From a virus, in the IMG/VR virus record IMGVR_UViG_3300034166_000560: a stretch of DNA of 64,000 nucleotides. The stretch is one strand, 5' to 3'. Position numbers and translations under genes: made by a program. The notes under the pieces were generated by a model. It searched no databases. It worked only from the letters and a program-made list of their open reading frames with translations, and was not told where the DNA came from. Positions 5,283 to 55,398 of the stretch are shown piece after piece; positions within the stretch are counted from its first letter, which is position 1, and the number at the start of each line of letters is the position of its first letter.

Positions 5283-5907
5283 ATGATCAAGGTTAAAGGA
5301 TATGTCATCTGCATGCCCAGCAGCGTTTGGGCCAAGAGCGATGACAAGTTTCCGTGGATTCCTCGTGAACATTCTTTTGGTAAGACTGCAACAGAAGCAT
5401 GGATTCGATTTATGAATATTCATCCTAATGATTATGAATGGGATAGGAAACAGACATATTGGATCGATCGTGGTTATTGCGTAAAAGAAGCTACATTGGA
5501 GATTAAAATATGAACAAGATTGATATAGCATATGTAGTTAGAAATGAATTGCATCGACTTGAAAAGTATGAGAAGCTGGTTCAGTTCATCGCTAATGATT
5601 ATCATGAACTGTCGCACGACAAAGCACAATGGCAACGTGACGATTGGAAGAAGCGTTGTAAGAAACTGATAGAGGAAGATAACAAATGACTATGACTTGG
5701 AGAGGAATGGACCTCAACTATGTTAGCAAAGACGTTGCTAACCGTTTCTTTGGTGACGTTATTAATATGTCAAGAGAAGAACTTGTAAAGCAGATTGTGG
5801 AATCGCCCATATATAATCTTCTTCCTAAAGATACTGCTGAAAAACTCAAGTATGAGAGAGTGATTGAATTTCTTGATATGAAGAAAAAACTGGAAGAAGC
5901 ACGATGA
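5283..5907 (+). CDS. Run of small hypothetical ORFs (5283-5513, 5510-5689, 5686-5907)
   Basis: Translationally coupled ATGA overlaps. Confidence 0.5.
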
Positions 5908-6668
5908 ACGACGCTAAGATTATTGCAGTAACACAACCGCTTATTGAAAACAAAAACGATGTTGGGCAAATTCGTTGTGATAAGATGACACCCAACGAAT
6001 TTATCGCATACACCGCCCGAGTATCTAATCCATCCAATCAGCATAACACACTAACATCAGAAAAACTCCTCAAGTATCTAATCGAACATAAGCACTGGTC
6101 TCCGTTTGAGATGGTTTCTATCACAATGGAAATCAATACAACTCGTGATATCTCTCACCAGATCATTCGCCATCGTTCTTTTTCGTTTCAGGAATTTAGC
6201 CAGCGTTATGCCGATCCCACTAAGGACATGCAGTTTGTAACGAGAGAAGCAAGACTACAGGACGCCAAGAACCGTCAGAATAGTATTGAGGTTGATGATA
6301 AAGATTTGGAAGAAGAATGGGATGTTCATCAACACCTAGTAAAAAGTCAGGCAGAATATTCTTATAAAAAGGCTATTGAACTTGGCATAGCAAAGGAACA
6401 AGCAAGAGCAATTCTACCAGAAGGTCTAACCACAACCCGTCTATATATGTCAGGGACGCTTCGTTCTTGGATTCATTACATTGACGTTAGAGCCGAAGAA
6501 GGCACACAGAAAGAACACCGTCAGGTTGCTCTTGCTGCACAGGAAGAGATTCTAAAACACTTCCCGTCATTGAAAGAATATTGGTTTCCAGAGCCTTGGT
6601 TTCATGGTGTTCCTGTGAATAAGTCGGAAGAAGAACCTAAATCATGGTGGTGGAGATTTTGGTCATGA
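5904..6668 (+). CDS. thyX: FAD-dependent thymidylate synthase
   Basis: HWSPFE and RHRSFSFQEFSQRY signature. Confidence 0.95.
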   Translation: MNDAKIIAVTQPLIENKNDVGQIRCDKMTPNEFIAYTARVSNPSNQHNTLTSEKLLKYLIEHKHWSPFEMVSITMEINTTRDISHQIIRHRSFSFQEFSQRYADPTKDMQFVTREARLQDAKNRQNSIEVDDKDLEEEWDVHQHLVKSQAEYSYKKAIELGIAKEQARAILPEGLTTTRLYMSGTLRSWIHYIDVRAEEGTQKEHRQVALAAQEEILKHFPSLKEYWFPEPWFHGVPVNKSEEEPKSWWWRFWS

Positions 6669-34128: not shown

Positions 34129-34863
34129 TCATTCTAAGAGATTATCTAAAACCTCTTCCATAAACTGTTTTCTAAGTTTTGATTTTCTAAACAAGTCATA
34201 ATAATATTCTAAAGGACTAATCAAAGGATATTTATTATTTCTTGCAGACAAATTTCGTTGCATCAAATGTAAAATTTTCTCTGATGGATAGAACTTTACC
34301 AGTTCTACATTTTCATCGGTCATAAACTTTACATTAAGATAAGGATCTCCACGTTTTAAAGTTACCTCATTATATCCGTTCCTCACGAAAAAGGCAAACT
34401 CTATGTTTCTAATCCATTCATATATATTAAACTGTCCTGGCATACCAATGGTTGTTTTACCAAACTCGGTATCGCCGAGATACGTAGGAGTCGTCTGAAT
34501 CTCTACGCTTTGTTCTGGAATAAACCAATAGTATAAATTAAGAGAGATCAATCTCTCTTTTGCCATTCTAACTCTAACAACATCATCAAAAAATTTCTGA
34601 TCATACATATCAGAATAGACATCGCCATCGTCAGTAAATTTTAAAGTGTAATCAATAGGAAATCTTAACTCATACGAATTATGAATTCTTCTTTTCATAC
34701 TAGGACAATACTTAAAATTGTCCAACGGTTTTAGATCGTTCGAAGGTAATTTATTAAACAGTTCCGAAGTTTTCATCGGTTCGTAATAATTCAAAAACTG
34801 GAGCGAATGATTATCACTCTCATTTACATTGAATGTATTTACTGCTGTCCAATAAACTTTCAT
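34129..34863 (-). CDS. Hypothetical protein
   Basis: AT-rich 244-aa ORF between tRNAs. Confidence 0.6.
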   Translation of the reverse strand: MKVYWTAVNTFNVNESDNHSLQFLNYYEPMKTSELFNKLPSNDLKPLDNFKYCPSMKRRIHNSYELRFPIDYTLKFTDDGDVYSDMYDQKFFDDVVRVRMAKERLISLNLYYWFIPEQSVEIQTTPTYLGDTEFGKTTIGMPGQFNIYEWIRNIEFAFFVRNGYNEVTLKRGDPYLNVKFMTDENVELVKFYPSEKILHLMQRNLSARNNKYPLISPLEYYYDLFRKSKLRKQFMEEVLDNLLE

Positions 34864-39915: not shown

Positions 39916-40644
39916 TTACAATCTTTCAAACAAGAAAAAAGATTGTCCTAATTGGTATCGAAAAACGTTTATTTGTTTGAATTTCCAAAGCCCATCGCAA
40001 CTTTTTTCAATATCCGAAATCTTTGTATAATATGGTGGTCTGTTATAATATGTTGTTCTTGAGAAATAGTTCTCTTCTGAAAACTCAAAAGGTTTAGATG
40101 TATCAAAAGAATCTTCAACGATCCAAAAAGATATAATGATTTTAGATTTTTCGTTAAAGCTATTATAAGAATCTTTCAAAAACATTTTTAATTTTTCTAT
40201 AGGCAAAAAAGTGAAAACCGAATTTGCCAGAGCCATGTCAAATTTTATATCGAAATTGTTGATATGAAAATTATCAGTAGCTAAAAAATTGTTTTCTGTT
40301 ATTTTATCTATTAAACCTTTTTTATATAACTCGTTGTTCACACCTATTATTAGAGATTTTTTATTTACGTCTATTCCATAATATTTAAACGGATCTAAAA
40401 AATTTATTATGTGAGATCCTGCCCTCATATACCCGCAGCCAATCTCCAAAAAATTCATATCTTTTTTCAGGCCATTATCTATCAACATATTTAATTGTTT
40501 TTCGCCATCTAAATCCCAATGGTTCCCCATTTCATTTCTATATTGATCGCCGAATAATTCTTTTTCATATATCTGTTCGTCAAAAACATAATATTTGTTA
40601 TATGTTTTCGATTTGTCATCGAACGATTCTTTTATTTTTATCAC
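39916..40644 (-). CDS. Class I SAM-dependent methyltransferase
   Basis: LEIGCG..R.G, YYGID, FD..LANSVFT; very AT-rich. Confidence 0.8.
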   Translation of the reverse strand: MIKIKESFDDKSKTYNKYYVFDEQIYEKELFGDQYRNEMGNHWDLDGEKQLNMLIDNGLKKDMNFLEIGCGYMRAGSHIINFLDPFKYYGIDVNKKSLIIGVNNELYKKGLIDKITENNFLATDNFHINNFDIKFDMALANSVFTFLPIEKLKMFLKDSYNSFNEKSKIIISFWIVEDSFDTSKPFEFSEENYFSRTTYYNRPPYYTKISDIEKSCDGLWKFKQINVFRYQLGQSFFLFERL

Positions 40645-43337: not shown

Positions 43338-43362
43338 AAAAAGAGGGGAGCCGAAGCTCCCC
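43338..43362 (-). terminator. UUCG-tetraloop terminator after gene 45
   Basis: GGGGAGC-TTCG-GCTCCCC-TCTTTTT; same core as the gene 23 terminator. Confidence 0.85.
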
Positions 43363-43369
43363 ATTCAAA

Positions 43370-44023
43370 TTAGAATGTTGAGTGCTGCTCAACTGCAATA
43401 AAGTATTCCACGTCCTTACCAATGAACTTAGAAATACCTCGTGCTGAAATGGTGACCTCATAATCACCAGGAAGAATCTTAATGTTCTCAAACTTAAAGA
43501 CTGCGTTAAAAGTCTTTGTAGTTTCTCCAATTGGTAGAGAAAACTCATTACCTGGATTCTTTGAGTTAGCTGCCTTTAGGAAAACAGTCTTGCCGTCACC
43601 AGCAACAACGATTTCTGGCAGACTCAAAACACCAGCAGCCTTCTCGACCTTATTAAGATCTTCGTTCTTTAGAGTAAAGGTAACATCCGTTGATGGAATG
43701 TTAATATCCTTCTCTGGAGCCTTAGTGATTGTGCTCTCGTCAGCAAGAAGGAACTTGCCCTGTTCCGAAGAAGAGTCCTTCATATAAACAAAAGTCTCAT
43801 CGATTTCTAGATCTGGGTCATTGTATAGACTCAGGCTAGAAAGGAACTGGTTAAGATCATAGATGGCAAACTTCTTAGTAAACTCTGTCGGAACAGTAGC
43901 CTTTGCCATAATGGTCTTATTTGGGGAAATGGTCTTAAGAACATTACCCTGCTGAACAACAATCGAAGGATTAATCTTTGAGAAGTTCTTCAAAACATTT
44001 ACTGTATTAGTATCAATCTTCAT
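43370..44023 (-). CDS. 45: Sliding clamp
   Basis: LKNFSKINPS, FAIYDLNQFL, K.LPGDY.V, YFIAVE. Confidence 0.93.
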   Translation of the reverse strand: MKIDTNTVNVLKNFSKINPSIVVQQGNVLKTISPNKTIMAKATVPTEFTKKFAIYDLNQFLSSLSLYNDPDLEIDETFVYMKDSSSEQGKFLLADESTITKAPEKDINIPSTDVTFTLKNEDLNKVEKAAGVLSLPEIVVAGDGKTVFLKAANSKNPGNEFSLPIGETTKTFNAVFKFENIKILPGDYEVTISARGISKFIGKDVEYFIAVEQHSTF

Positions 44024-44037
44024 TATATAATCTCCAC

Positions 44038-44904
44038 TTACTTCTTTTTGCCTTTGTCTTTATACTTACCAAGTGCACCTGGATCGGCGGTCGCAGAAGC
44101 ACCAACTGAAGCAAGATCAGCCAACGAACCACCAAAGATATAGGTGCCTACGTGCTGCATCTTCATCCATGGACAGAACCATGTACGCAGTCCAATTTCC
44201 TGAGCCTTCTGACAGAACCAATAATCTTCTGAAAGATAACGCTTAGACTTAGGATCGATCTCTGCCTGAAAGAACATCATGATTTCACGAGTGCCATCAA
44301 AGTGTTCAGTACGGACATGATCTGGTTTATAATTATATTCTGGATAAGAATCGACAAACTTCTGCATTGCCTTCTTAGAAACCATCATGAAGCCAGTTCC
44401 AATTTCAAGAACTTCTACTGGTTCGCTAAGAGGAATAGACTGCTGCCCACCCTTTGGATTGAAGACATAATCGCCAACGAACTTTTCAAGGACGTTTGGA
44501 TCTTCGTCAGCAACACCCTTATCAACAGCGTGCTTAACCTTTTCCCAAGAAATACACTTCTTTGGATATGGTCCGCCAATGATGTCATACTTATCTTCTT
44601 CCTGAACCTGAAGAGCCATAAGCGCAATGACGTCCTGTGGATTGAATCCGATGTCAGCATCAATAAACATCATGTGCTGCATATTGGAACGCATAAACTC
44701 GTCACAACAATAGTTACGTGCACGAGGAATTAGTGATTCATTAAACAAATAATAAAACTGTAGAGGAATACCATACTGTGTGCACAAAGCAGACAAGTCA
44801 GCTGACGACTTTGCGAACATACCTGCACACTGTCCACCATACATTGGCGTGGCGACGAATAGACCACGCTCTCTCAATTTTTCAATAGGGATCTGAATTT
44901 CCAT
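44038..44904 (-). CDS. GT-A-fold glycosyltransferase-like protein
   Basis: VATPMYGG, NESLIPRARN, FIDADI, GTGFM, LSEDY.FC. Confidence 0.75.
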   Translation of the reverse strand: MEIQIPIEKLRERGLFVATPMYGGQCAGMFAKSSADLSALCTQYGIPLQFYYLFNESLIPRARNYCCDEFMRSNMQHMMFIDADIGFNPQDVIALMALQVQEEDKYDIIGGPYPKKCISWEKVKHAVDKGVADEDPNVLEKFVGDYVFNPKGGQQSIPLSEPVEVLEIGTGFMMVSKKAMQKFVDSYPEYNYKPDHVRTEHFDGTREIMMFFQAEIDPKSKRYLSEDYWFCQKAQEIGLRTWFCPWMKMQHVGTYIFGGSLADLASVGASATADPGALGKYKDKGKKK

Positions 44905-44916
44905 TATATACCTTTC

Positions 44917-45126
44917 TTATGCTACTATAAAACTTTTAAACTTACAAGTATTACAATGAACTGCTTTTTGTGGAGGAAGCGAAGTTGTTACTACTGAGGG
45001 ATTTGTATCTTGTAATTCATCTCCACAATGAGGACAAGCAATGCCTGTTCCTAGATTAATAAAATGAGACATATATTCTCTATGTCTACGCTCGTTATGA
45101 TCATGAAAATCTTTCAATTCTTTCAT
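44917..45126 (-). CDS. Small zinc-ribbon protein
   Basis: CPHC...CNTC. Confidence 0.5.
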   Translation of the reverse strand: MKELKDFHDHNERRHREYMSHFINLGTGIACPHCGDELQDTNPSVVTTSLPPQKAVHCNTCKFKSFIVA

Positions 45127-45566
45127 TTCTTATCCTTATAATGATCGTTGTATAACATCATAAGAGTGTAATGAAGAACCTTCATAAGATCTGCTTTGTT
45201 GCTACCGTTCTTCTTACCGTAGCGCCAGAGATACTTAATAGCTGTGTTTCGGAAGGTAGGCATAGAATCACCGAGGGCGAGCCACACGTCGAAACATTCT
45301 ATATTTTGCTCTTCAGTCATATAATGTTGCCCATATGTCTTGTCGATATAGGCGTGGAAGTCACGAATAATTTCGTCTTCCTTATATTTATATTTAGGCG
45401 GCCAAGTTGAAGCAATTGGCGGATCCATGCTCATTCCAACATAAGGATCTTCTTGTCGCTTTGAACCAACAGCACCAGTAGGACCAGTTGCACCAATTGC
45501 CTGCGCTGACGCAGAAAGCGGTTGACCATAATAATCGCCATTCTCAAATCTATAAGTTTTGGTCAT
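45123..45566 (-). CDS. DUF3310-like protein
   Basis: TY.QHY...AIKYLWRYGKK.G....DL.K..HY. Confidence 0.75.
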   Translation of the reverse strand: MTKTYRFENGDYYGQPLSASAQAIGATGPTGAVGSKRQEDPYVGMSMDPPIASTWPPKYKYKEDEIIRDFHAYIDKTYGQHYMTEEQNIECFDVWLALGDSMPTFRNTAIKYLWRYGKKNGSNKADLMKVLHYTLMMLYNDHYKDKK

Positions 45567-46102
45567 GAGTTCTCCAATTTATTCATAATATCTTCAATAA
45601 TAAATTTCTGATCGTCTTTGTTATTATTTTTATATCTATTAGTGTTAAACATCAGAGTCATGTTTGTCATAATATTAGCAATCTTAGTTTCACGACCCTG
45701 CAACCAAGTTTCGTTCTGATTGCTACCACGTTCCTTGTATCGCTCTTGGCGAACTTCCTTATCAGTTTCTAGATAAATGATTTCAGTATCGTAATTCTCA
45801 ACACAATGTTCTAGGAACGTTGACGTGAAAAGACGATCGCCTTCGAAAAGAACGACCGCATCTTTATCTAAACTTGCTAGGAATTTAATTGCTTCTGGCT
45901 GAACCGCCATTGACATACGGTCTGTACCCGAGAAGGTTTCGCCTTCGTCATACTTACCAAGAATATAATATTTTCCATACTGAAGATAGGGAACGAGCTT
46001 CACGCTATCATAAATCTTAGACCAAACAAACTTAGTAAGAATTTCTTTCATTAACGTAGACTTGCCAGCACCTGGCTCACCACCAATCGCAATCACTTTC
46101 AT
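45563..46102 (-). CDS. P-loop kinase (5-hmdU DNA kinase-like)
   Basis: IGGEPGAGKST, LGKY, GTDR.SM, EGDRL; adjacent to aGPT-Pplase2. Confidence 0.75.
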   Translation of the reverse strand: MKVIAIGGEPGAGKSTLMKEILTKFVWSKIYDSVKLVPYLQYGKYYILGKYDEGETFSGTDRMSMAVQPEAIKFLASLDKDAVVLFEGDRLFTSTFLEHCVENYDTEIIYLETDKEVRQERYKERGSNQNETWLQGRETKIANIMTNMTLMFNTNRYKNNNKDDQKFIIEDIMNKLENS

Positions 46103-47079
46103 TACATAAACCTTTCAATACCGACACTCTCAGGTTCAACAAACAAACCTGTGCAATCTAGAACGCCATTCTCAATATATAAAGCCATTTTACTATTGTC
46201 AATCTTGTTTGTCAACAGTTTATTATTTAGAGTTTCATTTCGAGCGTCCCACATTGGTTGCCAATCAATACCATCCCAGCCATCCTTTTCACATTGAGCA
46301 ATTTCTTCTGCCTGACGATCAAGATAGTAACTCAGGTAACGACCATGTTTTACTCTGAATAACTTTTTAAAAGAACAAAGACACGTTTCCATATCGAAAT
46401 AATCAGTGTCAGGAAATTCCTCTTGAACTTCTTTTAGAATATAATATGCCTGACCGTCCAAATAGTTTATCTGTTTGGCATTTAGTTTTTGATCATACCA
46501 TTGATCTAATCCAACAGCGAGGCATAAACCGTTACGATGAGAACGAGAACCTGAATGATCTTCTAGCATTAGATTACCAGGTTCAATAGGCAGATCACAA
46601 CACTGTTTTAATGTTTGTAAATAGAACCAAGTAGAATATCTACCGAACTTATGGAACTTGGTTTTCACTTCATCCCATAGCATATCAAAGTTTTCTCTTG
46701 GCGTTCCAGTAAGAAACGGACGAAACGCTTCTATCTGGGAACGATCTCCAACCCAGTTCTTATACGATTCAAACTGCGCAGGTAAATGTCCTTTGTTCCA
46801 TTTAGTGTCTGTTTGATAACGTAGGCGTTTATAATTCTTATTGTTCCAATCCTTTAGGCGATCAAGACCAACAAGTTCCATATCAGGAAACTCATTCCAT
46901 ATCACCCATGTTGTTGGAAAATAATACGTTGTGCCGTAGATCCAAGCAATCCAGAGTTTTTGTTCTCTGTTATGCTCAAATCTTTTGAAAAGATAATTGG
47001 TCATGAATATCGCCGGATCGCAATCCTTAATGGAAAGTGACCACTTATACCAATTAATAAAGTCTTGTTTAACTTTCAA
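46102..47079 (-). CDS. aGPT-Pplase2 / amino-acid:DNA transferase-like protein
   Basis: DCDP, KFGRYSTWFY, S.SHRNGL, ETCLCSFKK, RY..YY.DR. Confidence 0.7.
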   Translation of the reverse strand: MKVKQDFINWYKWSLSIKDCDPAIFMTNYLFKRFEHNREQKLWIAWIYGTTYYFPTTWVIWNEFPDMELVGLDRLKDWNNKNYKRLRYQTDTKWNKGHLPAQFESYKNWVGDRSQIEAFRPFLTGTPRENFDMLWDEVKTKFHKFGRYSTWFYLQTLKQCCDLPIEPGNLMLEDHSGSRSHRNGLCLAVGLDQWYDQKLNAKQINYLDGQAYYILKEVQEEFPDTDYFDMETCLCSFKKLFRVKHGRYLSYYLDRQAEEIAQCEKDGWDGIDWQPMWDARNETLNNKLLTNKIDNSKMALYIENGVLDCTGLFVEPESVGIERFM

Positions 47080-47717
47080 CTCAAGAAACTTTCAAGGGAC
47101 GAATTGTTATATAATGCAGAGCGCAACCAATACTTTCCAACAGAATTTATTGCTTCTTCTACCTTTGTTTTCTTTTTTGTGCCAAAATTATGATTCTCTA
47201 AACCTTCAGAAAGAAATTGTTCGATGACTTTTTCTGGTGGCAACACCTGAGTAGGGTTATTAACTCCATACTGTTGATATTCTAATTGCTCTTTTCTTGT
47301 AGGAAATAATTTTTGATCAGAACGAAGAGAACCAGTAGGATCAACAGCCCAAAATAAAAGACCATTTCTCATATGCCATGTAACAGAAGAAGGCGTGCAA
47401 GATATCTTTAATCTATCAGAACGTTTTTCTTTGACTGCGTATGAGATATATTCTTCCCAAATCTTGGAAGCGTAACCCTTACCTTCTTTACCTTGGACAG
47501 TTACAATCTCATACAGGTTAGTATATCCAGAACGATTGTATGTTGCAAAGATAATAGAAACTATTTCATTATCTACTTCAAGAGCAACAGGCGGTGCTTT
47601 ATCGTAGTTCTTAAACCTGAACCATAGTGAATGTGCAGCTTTTAAAAAGTTTGTGTTTCTACCTTCTGGAGACTTTTCAATTATACCATTAACTTGATCT
47701 GCTGTTAAAAATATCAC
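47076..47717 (-). CDS. GNAT-like acetyltransferase
   Basis: NLYEIVT...EGKGYAS acetyl-CoA motif. Confidence 0.65.
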   Translation of the reverse strand: MIFLTADQVNGIIEKSPEGRNTNFLKAAHSLWFRFKNYDKAPPVALEVDNEIVSIIFATYNRSGYTNLYEIVTVQGKEGKGYASKIWEEYISYAVKEKRSDRLKISCTPSSVTWHMRNGLLFWAVDPTGSLRSDQKLFPTRKEQLEYQQYGVNNPTQVLPPEKVIEQFLSEGLENHNFGTKKKTKVEEAINSVGKYWLRSALYNNSSLESFLS

Positions 47718-48397
47718 TGTAAGTCCTCGATTGATGGAAACTCATACCTATTATAGCTTATAACTTTGAAATTATCAATAATGAAATGTTCAAACATAGG
47801 AGCAGCTACTTGAATATCTAATCCGCTTCTTTTTAGAATATCTGCTGTTGATGCAAATATAATACCATTTGCTCCATAAGAATAATGCAATGGTCTGGCT
47901 TCGTTACGGAAAGCAGTAATTACTTTATCTTTATCAAGAGTGCAAACCGACATGCTTGCAGGATGGAACTTATGTAAAGGGAGTTCGCCTTTCTCTAAAC
48001 AACGAAGAATAAGTTCGCTATCATTCTTTGTGATAACATCATAACCAAATGTTTCTTTCCATTGTTCTGGATTCTCCTGAGAGATAACTCCATTATGAAC
48101 AATAGAAAGTTCTTCGGTTGCCATTGGTTGATTGTAAGCAAGATCGCTAGTTGAGTAACGAACATGACCAATACAATATAGATTGCCATCTTCATTAACC
48201 CAACTAGGAATATCTTGATTGTTTATGAATGTGCAAGCATTAACAGGTTCTTTAATAGTGTGAACCTTGCCATCTTTGACATATGATACACCAGTGGCAT
48301 GTTTACCACGGATCATTGACTGAACAAAAAGCCGACGAACAAGTTCGAATTCCTGCTCGCTCGGCTTCTTGATCGCTATTCCTAGCACTCCGCACAT
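47714..48397 (-). CDS. Class II (Ntn) glutamine amidotransferase domain
   Basis: MCGV, RG.HATG, GHVRYST, NQP, HNG, DSE, RPL. Confidence 0.85.
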   Translation of the reverse strand: MCGVLGIAIKKPSEQEFELVRRLFVQSMIRGKHATGVSYVKDGKVHTIKEPVNACTFINNQDIPSWVNEDGNLYCIGHVRYSTSDLAYNQPMATEELSIVHNGVISQENPEQWKETFGYDVITKNDSELILRCLEKGELPLHKFHPASMSVCTLDKDKVITAFRNEARPLHYSYGANGIIFASTADILKRSGLDIQVAAPMFEHFIIDNFKVISYNRYEFPSIEDLQ

Positions 48398-49770
48398 TAG
48401 AAGAATGACTCCAATGAAGCAGCAGCGTCTTTACCGTATGGATCTTTCATATTATGAGCATGAAGATATTCATACCATTCTTTGTCATCCCACATTCCAG
48501 GAGAGACGCCATTCCATAGTGGACGCTGAAGTGGATGAGCCTTATTCATACGACGTTCTTCGACATATTGTTTACGTAACGCTTCATACTCATAAGACTT
48601 TAGTTCTAGCATCTTCTCACGGAAGTAACAAATTACTGAGATTCTTTCACAAGTAGAATCATCCGGATTGTTAAGAACAATAGGAGTATTACCATGAATG
48701 ATTTCGTGGTTGTTAACAAGGAGCAAATCACCGGGACGAACATTAACAGCAACACGATACTCAGGAAATACGAGATAGCCACCAGTATATTCTCCTGTGC
48801 CTAGAACGAGTAGATTAGAAAGACCAGCATCAAGATCACCAGCGTCTCGATGACAGGCAGTGCGGAAAGTTTTATTAACTGTAATTGTGGTAAATACAGT
48901 TTCTGGTACAAGGAACCGAGGATCTAACTTATCTGCAGCTGCTCGCTGATTACCCCAACGCCAAGGTAGTAATTCCTTGAAACCCTTATTCAGTGATTGG
49001 AGGAATGGGTATGCCAGTTCGAAAAGTTCTGGATGCTTTTCAGTGTATGACGTTGCACGCCCGTAAGGAATGCGAGGGTAACGATCGTACCAACCAGCAA
49101 CACCTGAGAATACGGATTGTGCGTAATTAGTGGCAGAAGCCCACTTTTCTGCGACCATTCTTGCTTCGGCATGAATTTCCTCCTGTGGTTTATTACTTAG
49201 GCCATCCACCCATTTATCAAACCAATCATGATATTCTGGATAAACCTTTGTTACCTCTGAACGCAACCAAACAACACCACGTGTTTCTTCAGCACCTTTT
49301 GGACCACCGTTTTTATATTTTTCTCTGATGGATTCGATTGATGTATCATCAATAAGAGATGCACCATCATTCATAAGGAACTCTAGTATCTCCATCTGAT
49401 ATGGAGTAACCCAATCTCTACCACCACGGCTTTGCGCTGCAAGCATTTCACCACGAGGACCAGCAGCATGGCCACGATTCTGGCTTTCAGTCGCAGCTTC
49501 TCTCAAGCCACGATAAGCCATATCCTGTTCTTCTTGACTGAAATAGTTTTTACGAAACTTGAAAGCAATACGCAATTCGTCATTGCCCTTTTCACAAGTA
49601 TCGCAAGCAGCCATACCACACTCAGCTTTTTCGAGAGGATCGCAGAGCGGGGGCATATAACAATCAGTGTCTTCTTCGATTAGAATATCGTAATTACTTT
49701 CATCGACAAACTGACCCAGAAGATGTTCGCAATCAATTTTATTCTTGGCGACAATACGTCTTACCATCAC
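48397..49770 (-). CDS. TET/JBP-family 2OG-Fe(II) dioxygenase
   Basis: FTTITVN..FRTACHRDAGD, HGNT, ERISVICYFRE. Confidence 0.75.
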   Translation of the reverse strand: MMVRRIVAKNKIDCEHLLGQFVDESNYDILIEEDTDCYMPPLCDPLEKAECGMAACDTCEKGNDELRIAFKFRKNYFSQEEQDMAYRGLREAATESQNRGHAAGPRGEMLAAQSRGGRDWVTPYQMEILEFLMNDGASLIDDTSIESIREKYKNGGPKGAEETRGVVWLRSEVTKVYPEYHDWFDKWVDGLSNKPQEEIHAEARMVAEKWASATNYAQSVFSGVAGWYDRYPRIPYGRATSYTEKHPELFELAYPFLQSLNKGFKELLPWRWGNQRAAADKLDPRFLVPETVFTTITVNKTFRTACHRDAGDLDAGLSNLLVLGTGEYTGGYLVFPEYRVAVNVRPGDLLLVNNHEIIHGNTPIVLNNPDDSTCERISVICYFREKMLELKSYEYEALRKQYVEERRMNKAHPLQRPLWNGVSPGMWDDKEWYEYLHAHNMKDPYGKDAAASLESFF

Positions 49771-50147
49771 TCAACTCCATAAAGAATAGATTTAATGTCA
49801 GGAGGGGTCCATCCTTCTGGCTTTAGAATCTTACCATCATCACGACGAATAACTTTACCATCAACTAATTTTGCCATGTTCGATCTATGGACTTCGTCGA
49901 AGACTCTATCCAAGGGAATACCGTAAGATGCAGCAGTCCCACAGACAATGTAAATAATATCAGCAAGCTCTTTAGCGATGTTTTCCAAGTCATTTTTGCA
50001 TTCACCTTGTATGTATTCTTCGTATTCTTCTTTCAAAAGTTTAATACGCAATTCACGTTCTGCGGGTTCAGGGAACACTGGAGCCTGACCAATATTCTGA
50101 CCAACTGCTGTTTGAAATTCTTTTACATCTTGATACATATTAGACAT
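49767..50147 (-). CDS. MazG-like NTP pyrophosphohydrolase
   Basis: EEYEE, ELADIIY, EVHRSNMAK, DGKILKP. Confidence 0.85.
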   Translation of the reverse strand: MSNMYQDVKEFQTAVGQNIGQAPVFPEPAERELRIKLLKEEYEEYIQGECKNDLENIAKELADIIYIVCGTAASYGIPLDRVFDEVHRSNMAKLVDGKVIRRDDGKILKPEGWTPPDIKSILYGVE

Positions 50148-50703
50148 ACATCCACTCCGGAGGGTTACGTTTTTTCCAACTATGAAGATGAGTCTTACCC
50201 ATCTTATAATAATTACGATAGTTTACAATAGGATCTTCTGAAATTTTATATTCATCGGCCATAGCAGATGGCATAAGAGTCATATCGTATTCTTCTAAAT
50301 TTTTGGGAGGAGTGCACAAAGCAAAACTCAACTCACCAAAACACTTATGTTCTTTCTCATAACGATATGTATATTCCTTCATAAGAGCGAAGAAATGATC
50401 TACGAGCCAATTATAATTCTCGACACTTGCCCGAGTCCATACACAACTCGGATGATTAATGTGCGTAGCTGAATATAGTATGTCTTCACGACCATCTCCA
50501 AGTAACCACCATTTTTTCTTTTTCGTTTTAAAAGTGCCATCTTCTTGTTCGATCTGAACTTCTAACTGTATTTCTTTACCATCAAGAACACGATGTGCAG
50601 TCGAAAGCAGCTGAGCAGATTCGAGGATCATCTTAACAACGTGACGATCTACCATCCACTCGGCAGCTTCTACAGGATTATCAGAAAGATAAAAGATATT
50701 CAT
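50140..50703 (-). CDS. Pyrimidine-dimer glycosylase (DenV-like) family
   Basis: MNIFYL...DRHVVKMILESAQLLSTAH, THINHP, YRNYY. Confidence 0.75.
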   Translation of the reverse strand: MNIFYLSDNPVEAAEWMVDRHVVKMILESAQLLSTAHRVLDGKEIQLEVQIEQEDGTFKTKKKKWWLLGDGREDILYSATHINHPSCVWTRASVENYNWLVDHFFALMKEYTYRYEKEHKCFGELSFALCTPPKNLEEYDMTLMPSAMADEYKISEDPIVNYRNYYKMGKTHLHSWKKRNPPEWMYV

Positions 50704-54787: not shown

Positions 54788-55339
54788 TCATTCTTCATTT
54801 TCTTCTACCTCTGAAAATTTCTCAACTCCAACTAGCTTACTAGGTTTTTTGCTTTTTGTCAACTTATCTTCAAACGACCTAACAACATCAGCTGAATACT
54901 CATTAGATTTCAATTGAGTAGCATGTCCTTCTTCTTGCATTTCAGAGAAGATAAAGCTGTTCTCAAAATTCTTCATCTTGATATAAGTCTGTTTCTTTTC
55001 TTTTTGAATGCGACGAAGGAAAGCGTTCCATGCAATCTGGGTAAAATATGCGAACGGATTGTTTGTTTTATCAGGATTGAAATTATCAACTGCTGCAATA
55101 CAATCCATAATGCCATCGCTGATCATATCGGATTTATAAGTGTATCCAGAGAAGTTTGGCTTCTTGGCAAGGTTGTTACAAATCAAAAGAATAGACTCTC
55201 CGATATATTTCGGAACGATAGGTTCTTCTTTTCCTGCAGCCACGGCTTCTTTCAATTCATTTTTATAATGAATCATAGCTCCGTAGAGAGTCTTGTTGTT
55301 GATATAATTTGTTTTTCTTTTTGGCTTCTTTACTTCCAT
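54788..55339 (-). CDS. 55: Late-transcription sigma factor
   Basis: NYINN, YIGE, PNFSGY, MISDG, NPFAYFTQI..NAFLRRI.KEK. Confidence 0.95.
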   Translation of the reverse strand: MEVKKPKRKTNYINNKTLYGAMIHYKNELKEAVAAGKEEPIVPKYIGESILLICNNLAKKPNFSGYTYKSDMISDGIMDCIAAVDNFNPDKTNNPFAYFTQIAWNAFLRRIQKEKKQTYIKMKNFENSFIFSEMQEEGHATQLKSNEYSADVVRSFEDKLTKSKKPSKLVGVEKFSEVEENEE

Positions 55340-55398
55340 AATATATTCCTTGACATTTTTCAAGACACAGGTATAATCACTAGTGCCAGAGTTGAATA

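Follow-up and report, generated by a model that had tools for sequence, protein, structure and literature searches.

A candidate thymidine hypermodification cassette with polymerase-like tails on three of its enzymes in a T4-like phage

Five adjacent minus-strand genes of a T4-like phage encode a TET/JBP dioxygenase (TET), a stand-alone class II glutamine amidotransferase (GATase), a GNAT-fold protein, a member of the amino acid:DNA transferase family (AADT) and a P-loop kinase. They lie in a 64,000-nucleotide stretch of DNA, hereafter the window, which is the reverse strand of bases 24-64023 in the 90,245-bp IMG/VR record IMGVR_UViG_3300034166_000560 (CheckV completeness about 54%). We propose that the five genes form a post-replicative thymidine hypermodification cassette. 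In this cassette thymidine (T) would be converted to 5-hydroxymethyl-deoxyuridine (5-hmdU), then to 5-phosphomethyl-deoxyuridine (5-phosphomethyl-dU), 5-aminomethyl-dU (5-NmdU) and finally an N-acyl product, and the three enzymes that carry a polymerase-like C-terminal tail are probably held on the gp45 sliding clamp. We put the probability of this reading at roughly 55%.

The proposed pathway has four steps. First, TET would hydroxylate T in polymerised DNA to give 5-hmdU, an activity shown for related phage enzymes. Second, the P-loop kinase, judged by its family, would convert 5-hmdU to 5-phosphomethyl-dU. Third, the AADT would activate C6 of the base through Cys235, expel the phosphate and accept a nucleophile, here ammonia. 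The ammonia would be released from free glutamine by a GATase docked on the AADT, so that the pair would act as a split amidotransferase of the PurF type and yield 5-aminomethyl-dU. Fourth, the GNAT-fold enzyme would acylate the amine, most simply with acetyl-CoA, to give 5-acetylaminomethyl-dU (5-AcNmdU). The predicted nucleoside masses are 257 u for 5-NmdU and 299 u for 5-AcNmdU. A more specific proposal joins two parts: that GATase and AADT aminate 5-phosphomethyl-dU on DNA as a split PurF-like enzyme, and that gp45 recruits the tailed TET, AADT and GNAT, together with the TAGT-like glucosyltransferase of relatives, replacing the ParB-like CTPase clamp that activates short-form TETs. We hold this joint proposal tentatively, at somewhat less than even odds.

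The cassette and its states in related phages

About 100 related viral contigs were compared. Scanning with the GNAT protein gave 21 IMG/VR contigs that carry TET, GATase, GNAT, AADT and kinase in colinear order, at 45-68% identity, and these 21 loci fall into two contexts. In the T4-like context the neighbours of the cassette are gp46, deformylase and gp45, and the TET is of the long form, with 430-457 amino acids (aa). In the ParB-linked context a ParB_N protein comes before the TET, which is of the short form, with 318 aa; this context is the 'ParB-dependent' clade of O'Toole et al. 2026 (PMC13229309). Orthologues of all five cassette genes, at 40-60% identity, are found in the ParB-linked loci L017 and L019-L024. 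On one T4-like contig (L012:1284-5829), a radical S-adenosylmethionine (SAM)-like protein, a dCMP deaminase and a UDP-glucose dehydrogenase-like protein precede the cassette.

A scan with the 288-aa protein encoded between the cassette and gp45 gave 507 relatives. The best 80 of these (L030-L109, 82-97% identity), which make up the lineage survey, represent one abundant T4-like lineage. Its backbone order is gp46, deformylase, a 187-aa gene, MazG, the cassette, DUF3310, a 69-aa gene in many relatives, the 288-aa gene and gp45. The cassette occupies a hot spot between MazG and DUF3310, equivalent to window positions 45566-49767, and at least five states of this hot spot form a natural series within the one lineage: empty; TET only; TET with a TAGT-like glucosyltransferase; TET with a kinase and a 30%-identical AADT; and GATase versions, in which TET is followed by GATase, a variable middle block, a window-type AADT and the kinase. 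The fullest state listed has GATase, amidoligase, GNAT, AADT and kinase. The 213-aa GNAT of the window is in none of the 80 lineage loci, and for this reason the middle block of the window looks swapped in. The cultured phage Cr30 has an AADT (30% identical) and a kinase, and neither GATase nor GNAT.

Judged from gene content across these relatives, the functional unit is the five genes only, at 45563-49770. MazG, DUF3310, the 69-aa open reading frame (ORF) and the GT-A-like gene for the 288-aa protein are placed outside the modification system because they form a constant backbone whatever the state of the cassette. An earlier annotation of this DNA, made from the sequence alone (hereafter the original prediction), had counted MazG, DUF3310 and the GT-A-like gene among the parts of the system; they belong instead to the backbone and are present in relatives without any TET.

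Source of 5-hydroxymethyluracil

TET matches the Tet_JBP family (PF12851) with 82.8 bits, against a cut-off of 34.9. The residues of its Fe(II) triad, H307-x-D309 and H359, and R376, which binds 2-oxoglutarate, are invariant in 11 TET orthologues, and the protein is 48-50% identical to the TETs of the T4-like phages DLP6 and Cr30. It is about 140 aa longer than the ParB-linked TETs, owing to an insertion near residues 106-220 and a C-terminal extension. The N-terminus of the long TET is common to the short TETs, and the alignment with the ParB-linked short TETs, which belong to the T-dioxygenase clade, covers the whole length.

The 90-kb record encodes the flavin-dependent thymidylate synthase ThyX, which supplies ordinary thymidine monophosphate (dTMP), and has no match to PF00303 (ThyA family) or PF00145 (C5-methyltransferase). 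Because the record is incomplete, two near-complete relatives were also searched: one of 162 kb (98% complete) with a GATase-type cassette and one of 168 kb (100% complete) with a GATase-less cassette. Both have ThyX, and neither has a PF00303 or PF00145 match. With ThyX present, and with neither a hydroxymethylase nor a C5-methyltransferase, T in DNA is therefore the only evident substrate of TET, and on these gene contents the enzyme most likely makes 5-hydroxymethyluracil (5-hmU) from T in polymerised DNA. The same conclusion was drawn for such contigs by Lee et al. 2021 (PMC8989533), and O'Toole et al. 2026 (PMC13229309) demonstrated T-dioxygenase activity in phage members of this superfamily.

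The original prediction had combined dTMP from ThyX with TET/JBP as a possible source of hmU (or hmC) on DNA and had left the rest of the genome to be searched for a hydroxymethylase or a C5-methyltransferase. This part is borne out, as neither enzyme was found in the record or even in the relatives that are 98-100% complete. The same prediction had seen in the TET entry a route different from those described; in this it was anticipated, since the linkage of this TET clade with GATase, P-loop kinase and AADT in TET_JBP clusters is already published (PMC8989533; PMC13229309).

Kinase, transferase and the predicted amidotransferase partner

The kinase matches Ploopntkinase3 (PF18751) with 49.4 bits, against a cut-off of 27, and has the Walker A motif GGEPGAGKST. 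It falls in phrog_800, which it shares with gp49 of phage PaMx11, a verified 5-hmdU DNA kinase. The AADT matches ADDT (PF18724, formerly aGPT-Pplase2) with 91.6 bits and falls in phrog_3271 with ViI gp247, a verified serine:DNA transferase to which it is 30% identical over 294 residues. The segment E231-T232-x-x-C235 aligns with E243, T244 and C247 of PaMx11 gp46, which are metal ligands and the catalytic Cys; none of the 18 AADTs compared differs at the Cys or the Glu. The AADT profile gave no significant hhalign match to PaMx11 gp46, and the alignment of the catalytic motif therefore rests on MAFFT.

The GATase has a GATase_6 match of 42.8 bits and a GATase_7 match, and the profiles that it matches best are those of the AsnB, PurF and GlmS N-terminal domains. 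It is not fused to an acceptor (synthase) domain. The protein begins Met-Cys, and Cys2, R80, N102-G103 and D126 are invariant in 11 sequences. In PurF, GlmS and AsnB this set of Cys, Arg, Asn-Gly and Asp binds free glutamine and forms the oxyanion hole. In the lineage survey, GATase is found only with window-type AADTs (at least 69% identical), never with the 30%-identical AADT, and it is present beside every window-type AADT for which upstream DNA is available.

Prediction of the AADT and GATase complex from paired alignments gave an interaction prediction score from aligned errors (ipSAE) of 0.80, with 0.00 for the best control. This score is the model's own confidence; 58 of 80 solved complexes and 2 of 110 mismatched pairs attain the same mark. 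At least 82% of contacts are common to the complex runs, and the predicted local distance difference test score (pLDDT) of the partner is at least 87. On the GATase the predicted interface includes residues 1, 28-33, 81, 83, 104 and 107, which surround the active site, and conserved C-terminal residues. The GATase is thus predicted to dock on the AADT by its active-site face, and we propose that it is the ammonia donor for the AADT. We know of no similar GATase-AADT complex that has been solved. At its C-terminus (47714-47725) the GATase ends in D-[LYF]-Q, a motif kept by T4-like and ParB-linked groups alike, and residues 226-227 are in the predicted interface.

The GNAT-fold protein and the amine intermediate

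The GNAT protein is below the Pfam cut-off (17.3 bits against 20.7). Its AlphaFold (AF2) model, with a pLDDT of 93.4, has a GNAT domain and a helical C-terminal extension. Comparison of the model with the PDB gave 215 matches at E <= 0.001, and all among the matches listed are GNAT acetyltransferases. A QGKEGKG loop after strand 4, which is the strand-4/helix-3 pyrophosphate-binding loop, is conserved. No homologue of this GNAT was found in 50,697 phage records, and its profile has no significant hhalign match to PaMx11 gp48.

In relatives, the slot between GATase and AADT is filled by the GNAT of the window, by an amidoligase-like protein together with a phrog_1249 GNAT, or by other sets. Phrog_1249 is the PHROG of PaMx11 gp48, the 5-NmdU acetyltransferase. 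This variable slot fits a common 5-aminomethyl-dU intermediate that, by analogy with the amination of phosphoribosyl pyrophosphate (PRPP) by PurF, would be produced by attack of ammonia; an amine is suggested because the acyl-CoA transferases and the amidoligases found in the slot both need a primary amine. One route given in the original prediction, from ammonia of the amidotransferase through 5-aminomethyl-dU to acylation by the GNAT, is the best model on this evidence, its last two steps being inferred. The possibility of a new base, raised together with it, is not upheld, as the predicted end product 5-AcNmdU is the known base of PaMx11.

Polymerase-like C-terminal tails

TET, GNAT and AADT each end in a short motif (Table 1) that resembles the C-terminus of the DNA polymerase of this phage, STLEDFFND. 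When the motif is defined strictly, the 40,192 residues of all 278 ORFs contain it four times, each time at a C-terminus (TET, GNAT, AADT and DNA polymerase); chance would give about 0.08 strict C-terminal matches. The T4-like orthologues retain the tails despite variable linkers, and the ParB-linked orthologues lack them. In the GNAT model, the last 13 or so residues have a pLDDT of 51-70, which fits a flexible tail. Among the relatives, the tail is also found on the alternative AADT, on the TAGT-like transferase and on a 363-aa cassette protein, and is lacking from GATase, kinase, amidoligase and the backbone genes. The polymerase and the TET of DLP6 have the C-termini ATLDSFFA and ATLGDFFV, respectively. 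The gp43, gp55 and gp33 proteins of T4 bind gp45 through interchangeable short acidic-hydrophobic C-termini (PMC2988020), and T4 alpha-glucosyltransferase also binds gp45 (PMC13216743).

A variable insert is reported to govern the dependence of phage TETs on ParB (O'Toole et al. 2026, PMC13229309). No match to ParB_N (PF02195) was found in the 90-kb record, whereas the short-form orthologues do have an adjacent ParB. As far as can be told from these sequences, the tailed TET, GNAT and AADT probably ride on gp45, in place of the ParB-like activator of the non-T4 version. A ParB fused into the long TET was considered and rejected: the protein has no similarity to the ParB of HTVC112P and no ParB hit in Pfam, and the extra length is accounted for by the insertion and the extension. 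The closest relative encodes a 431-aa cassette protein (L030:2592-3887) with a weak ParB-like match to phrog_8071 (E 1e-4, residues 150-228).

Three lineage loci (L039:4086-4868, L088:2913-3698 and L100:3053-3829) have, after TET, a protein of about 260 aa that ends TLESFF, SLDEFF or TLDNFF. The L039 copy matches phrog_842, beta-glucosyl-HMC-alpha-glucosyltransferase, and these proteins suggest a base-J-like glucosyl-hmU variant that is likewise clamp-tailed. Near the TETs of cultured phages, the hypothetical protein DLP6 AAY80_028 (L001:5057-5920) ends LSDLSSFFN and a hypothetical protein of Cr30 (L002:12238-13164) ends ISDLSKLF. Within the window, the late sigma factor gp55 (54788-55363, minus strand) ends LVGVEKFSEVEENEE; its tail-like VGVEKF, close to the VGIERFM of the AADT, stands 9 residues before the end and is not terminal. 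The only other ORF that matches a relaxed tail pattern encodes a 244-aa protein (34129-34863, minus strand) that has no family match and ends EEVLDNLLE.

Weighing the pathway against its alternatives

Several points weigh against the proposed pathway. Every characterised AADT transfers an amino acid (PMC8989533), and the nearest characterised one, ViI gp247, makes an O-serinyl link. In pairwise BLAST, the similarity of the kinase of the window to verified kinases is confined to the P-loop. Of the three complex runs, one scored 0.11, and the interface residues of the AADT are not clearly subtype-specific: their conservation in GATase-less AADTs is 0.36, against 0.42 for other conserved residues. 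The functions of these GATases and amidoligases were listed as unknown by Lee et al. 2021 (PMC8989533), we found no later paper that assigns them a function, and there is no published chemistry for any GATase-containing cassette. The donor of the GNAT may be other than an acyl-CoA: the GNAT-fold protein Mom is reported to use a charged tRNA (PMC13219725). With the record about 54% complete, the absence of genes from the phage itself rests on the relatives.

The first of these points, that characterised AADTs transfer amino acids, favours a pathway in which the AADT installs serine, glycine or glutamate, as in ViI, M6 and SP10, and the GNAT acetylates the alpha-amine, so that the product would be an N-acetyl-aminoacyl thymidine. 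The PHROG shared with the ViI serine transferase and the 30% identity to it speak for this pathway too. The GATase would then have a peripheral role, for example in amidation of a carboxylate or in the supply of nitrogen elsewhere. Such a role sits poorly with an amidotransferase that strictly co-occurs with this AADT subtype and is predicted to dock on it by the active-site face, and the cassette has no ATP-dependent enzyme to activate a carboxylate for amidation. PaMx11 gp46 holds glycine through W146 and K150 (PMC11472151). At these positions the GATase-linked AADTs have an invariant Y148 and F152 in place of the glycine-binding residues; ViI has L and N, and the GATase-less AADT of the lineage has L and S. 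Taking both sides together, we regard this pathway as unlikely, though the most probable of the alternatives.

Trimming of a glutaminyl adduct was another route allowed by the original prediction. On this reading the GATase, acting as a GATase-like Ntn amidohydrolase, would remove the gamma-glutamyl group from a DNA-bound gamma-glutamyl-aminomethyl intermediate. EgtC of the ergothioneine pathway catalyses a comparable gamma-glutamyl removal, stand-alone class II GATase domains can be hydrolases, and close relatives have the GATase adjoining a glutamine-synthetase-like amidoligase. But the cassette of the window and 21 others keep the GATase without an amidoligase, and for the adduct to form, the amide nitrogen of glutamine, a weak nucleophile, would have to attack. 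The profiles nearest to the GATase are moreover those of the glutaminase domains of AsnB, PurF and GlmS, and trimming is disfavoured because the residues that bind glutamine by its free alpha-amino and alpha-carboxylate groups do not vary. We consider this route improbable.

Least probable is a cassette that hypermodifies cytosine instead of thymine, with TET acting on 5-methylcytosine (5mC): phage TETs of clades A and B do oxidise 5mC (PMC8256090) and P-loop kinases might phosphorylate 5-hydroxymethylcytosine, as suggested by Burke et al., but no C5-methyltransferase is found in the record or the two near-complete relatives, the TET aligns over its full length with short TETs of the T-dioxygenase clade, and kinase and AADT share PHROGs with verified thymidine-pathway enzymes.

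Genome setting and neighbouring genes

Ten minus-strand ORFs span 50703 to 44038, and neighbours overlap by 1-8 nt or are separated by a 12-nt gap. The phage is T4-like. T4-type replication genes for UvsW, gp55, gp47 and gp46, as well as a peptide deformylase gene, lie upstream of the cluster; the gp45 clamp, the gp44/gp62 clamp loader and RegA follow downstream. The window also holds the capsid genes gp23, gp22 and gp21, and the B-family DNA polymerase is encoded outside it, at G000:C1:79330-81855. Downstream of RegA is a gene for a 242-aa class I SAM methyltransferase-like protein (39916-40644, minus strand), whose Methyltransf_12 match of 26 bits is below the cut-off.

Table 1 Positions of the cassette genes, their putative clamp-binding tails and other genes of the window.
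Feature	Position	Strand	Basis
TET/JBP (5mYOX) dioxygenase, 457 aa	48397-49770	-	PF12851
Class II (Ntn) glutamine amidotransferase (GATase), stand-alone, 227 aa	47714-48397	-	GATase_6, GATase_7
GNAT-fold protein, 213 aa	47076-47717	-	AlphaFold model and Foldseek
AADT/ADDT (amino acid:DNA transferase family), 325 aa	46102-47079	-	PF18724
P-loop kinase from the family of 5-hmdU DNA kinases, 179 aa	45563-46102	-	PF18751
TET tail SLESFF	48400-48417	-	Putative gp45 clamp-binding motif
GNAT tail SLESFLS	47079-47099	-	Putative clamp-binding motif
AADT tail GIERFM	46105-46122	-	Putative clamp-binding motif
187-aa protein upstream of MazG	50140-50703	-	phrog_624
MazG/PRA-PH pyrophosphohydrolase	49767-50147	-	Profile match, 66.7 bits
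DUF3310-like protein	45123-45566	-	DUF3310 borderline; phrog_480
69-aa ORF	44917-45126	-	
288-aa GT-A-like protein	44038-44904	-	Foldseek of mediocre model
gp45 sliding clamp	43370-44023	-	PF09116 and phrog_223
ThyX, flavin-dependent thymidylate synthase	5904-6668	+	PF02511, 150 bits at 5982-6569

A terminator-like hairpin (7 bp, 6 of them GC, then a T run) lies at 43345-43362 on the minus strand, directly 3' of gp45. Since this strong hairpin comes after gp45, the cassette and gp45 may be on one transcript. In a promoter scan the number of sites was no higher than the chance expectation, and megablast of the region against the 50,697 phage records gave no DNA match.

The ORFs named in the original prediction were confirmed, as were most of its families in scans with Pfam, PHROG and NCBIfam profiles; its DUF3310 call is borderline and its GT-A call is not firm. 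MazG is kept in the TET-less relatives L049 and L096. The DUF3310-like protein scores 23.9 bits against a cut-off of 24 and matches phrog_480 at 2.6e-24; its gene is found, at any cassette state, in every one of the 78 relatives that have sequence upstream of the 288-aa gene, and is absent from the 21 other cassette loci. The 288-aa protein has no Pfam match. Its model is mediocre (pLDDT 64.7), and Foldseek relates it to GT-A/nucleotide-diphospho-sugar transferase and nucleotidyltransferase folds with template modelling (TM) scores of 0.3-0.5. A DSD motif is present at residues 82-84, and on this model a GT-A assignment is plausible. Homologues of the protein occur in 65 phage records, including those of Sinorhizobium phages, which are not among the records that match TET.

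The 187-aa backbone protein matches phrog_624 ('DNA binding protein', 1.5e-51) and weakly, at 19 bits and below the cut-off, Pyr_excise of the T4 endonuclease V family. It was considered as a ParB and rejected, as it is a backbone gene product with only these two matches. Phmmer searches of the PDB with the 187-aa, GNAT, 288-aa and GATase proteins, and a profile search with the AADT, gave nothing useful.

Comparison with known systems

As a gene neighbourhood, this type of cluster is already published. The metavirome TET_JBP/5mYOX clusters (PMC8989533; clade C1 of PMC13229309) have the same Pfam set (PF12851, PF13522/PF13537, PF18751 and PF18724) and likewise lack both a dUMP hydroxymethylase and a C5-methyltransferase. 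The window differs from them in having no ParB_N in the 90-kb record, a TET about 140 aa longer, a T4-like genome and three enzymes with a polymerase-type tail.

The 5-AcNmdU pathway of PaMx11 consists of the gp46 AADT, the gp47 lyase dependent on flavin adenine dinucleotide (FAD), the gp48 acetyltransferase and the gp49 kinase. It shares with the window the PHROG of the kinase, the E-T-x-x-C motif of the AADT, a GNAT-fold enzyme in the cluster, the predicted intermediate 5-NmdU and the predicted product 5-AcNmdU. In the window, however, PF00303 has no match, TET acting on DNA would take over from the dUMP hydroxymethylase as the source of 5-hmdU, and the FAD-dependent glycinyl-thymine lyase of PaMx11 is missing, with a GATase in its place. 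The AADT belongs to a different PHROG from gp46 and lacks the glycine-binding W146 and K150, and the GNAT has no detectable sequence similarity to gp48. The predicted product is thus the PaMx11 base, but it would be reached without hydroxymethylase, glycine or FAD lyase. The product is known for no GATase-containing, TET-started thymidine hypermodification cluster. If the proposed pathway is true, 15N from the amide of glutamine should end up in the base.

Salmonella phage ViI, whose gp247 (phrog_3271) is the closest characterised AADT, also has a 5-hmdU DNA kinase but differs in having no TET, GATase or GNAT; it uses a pyridoxal phosphate (PLP)-dependent decarboxylase, and its product is 5-(2-aminoethoxy)methyl-dU (5-NeOmdU).

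By analogy with the predicted pair, PurF has a glutaminase of class II (Cys1, Arg, Asn-Gly and Asp), and its ammonia attacks an activated carbon from which a (pyro)phosphate group leaves. In PurF the phosphoribosyltransferase (PRTase) acceptor domain is part of the same chain, whereas here the acceptor would be a separate AADT working on DNA, in a pairing that is predicted.

The clients of T4 gp45 (gp43, gp55, gp33 and alpha-glucosyltransferase) have, like the tailed enzymes of the window, a short acidic-hydrophobic C-terminal tail similar to that of their own polymerase, and alpha-glucosyltransferase is the precedent for a DNA-modifying enzyme that binds the clamp (PMC13216743). The putative clients here are instead a dioxygenase, an AADT and a GNAT. 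If their tails do hold them on the sliding clamp, modification would be tied to the replication fork, and gp45 with its loader would be worth adding when ParB-less phage TETs are reconstituted. Recruitment by gp45, if true, could also explain why the ParB-less TETs of clade C1 are inactive in E. coli. What is new in comparison with the known systems is the T4-like, ParB-less version of the cassette with its long TET, the polymerase-like, putatively clamp-binding tails on TET, GNAT and AADT, the evidence for a pairing of GATase with AADT, and the cassette hot spot between MazG and DUF3310.

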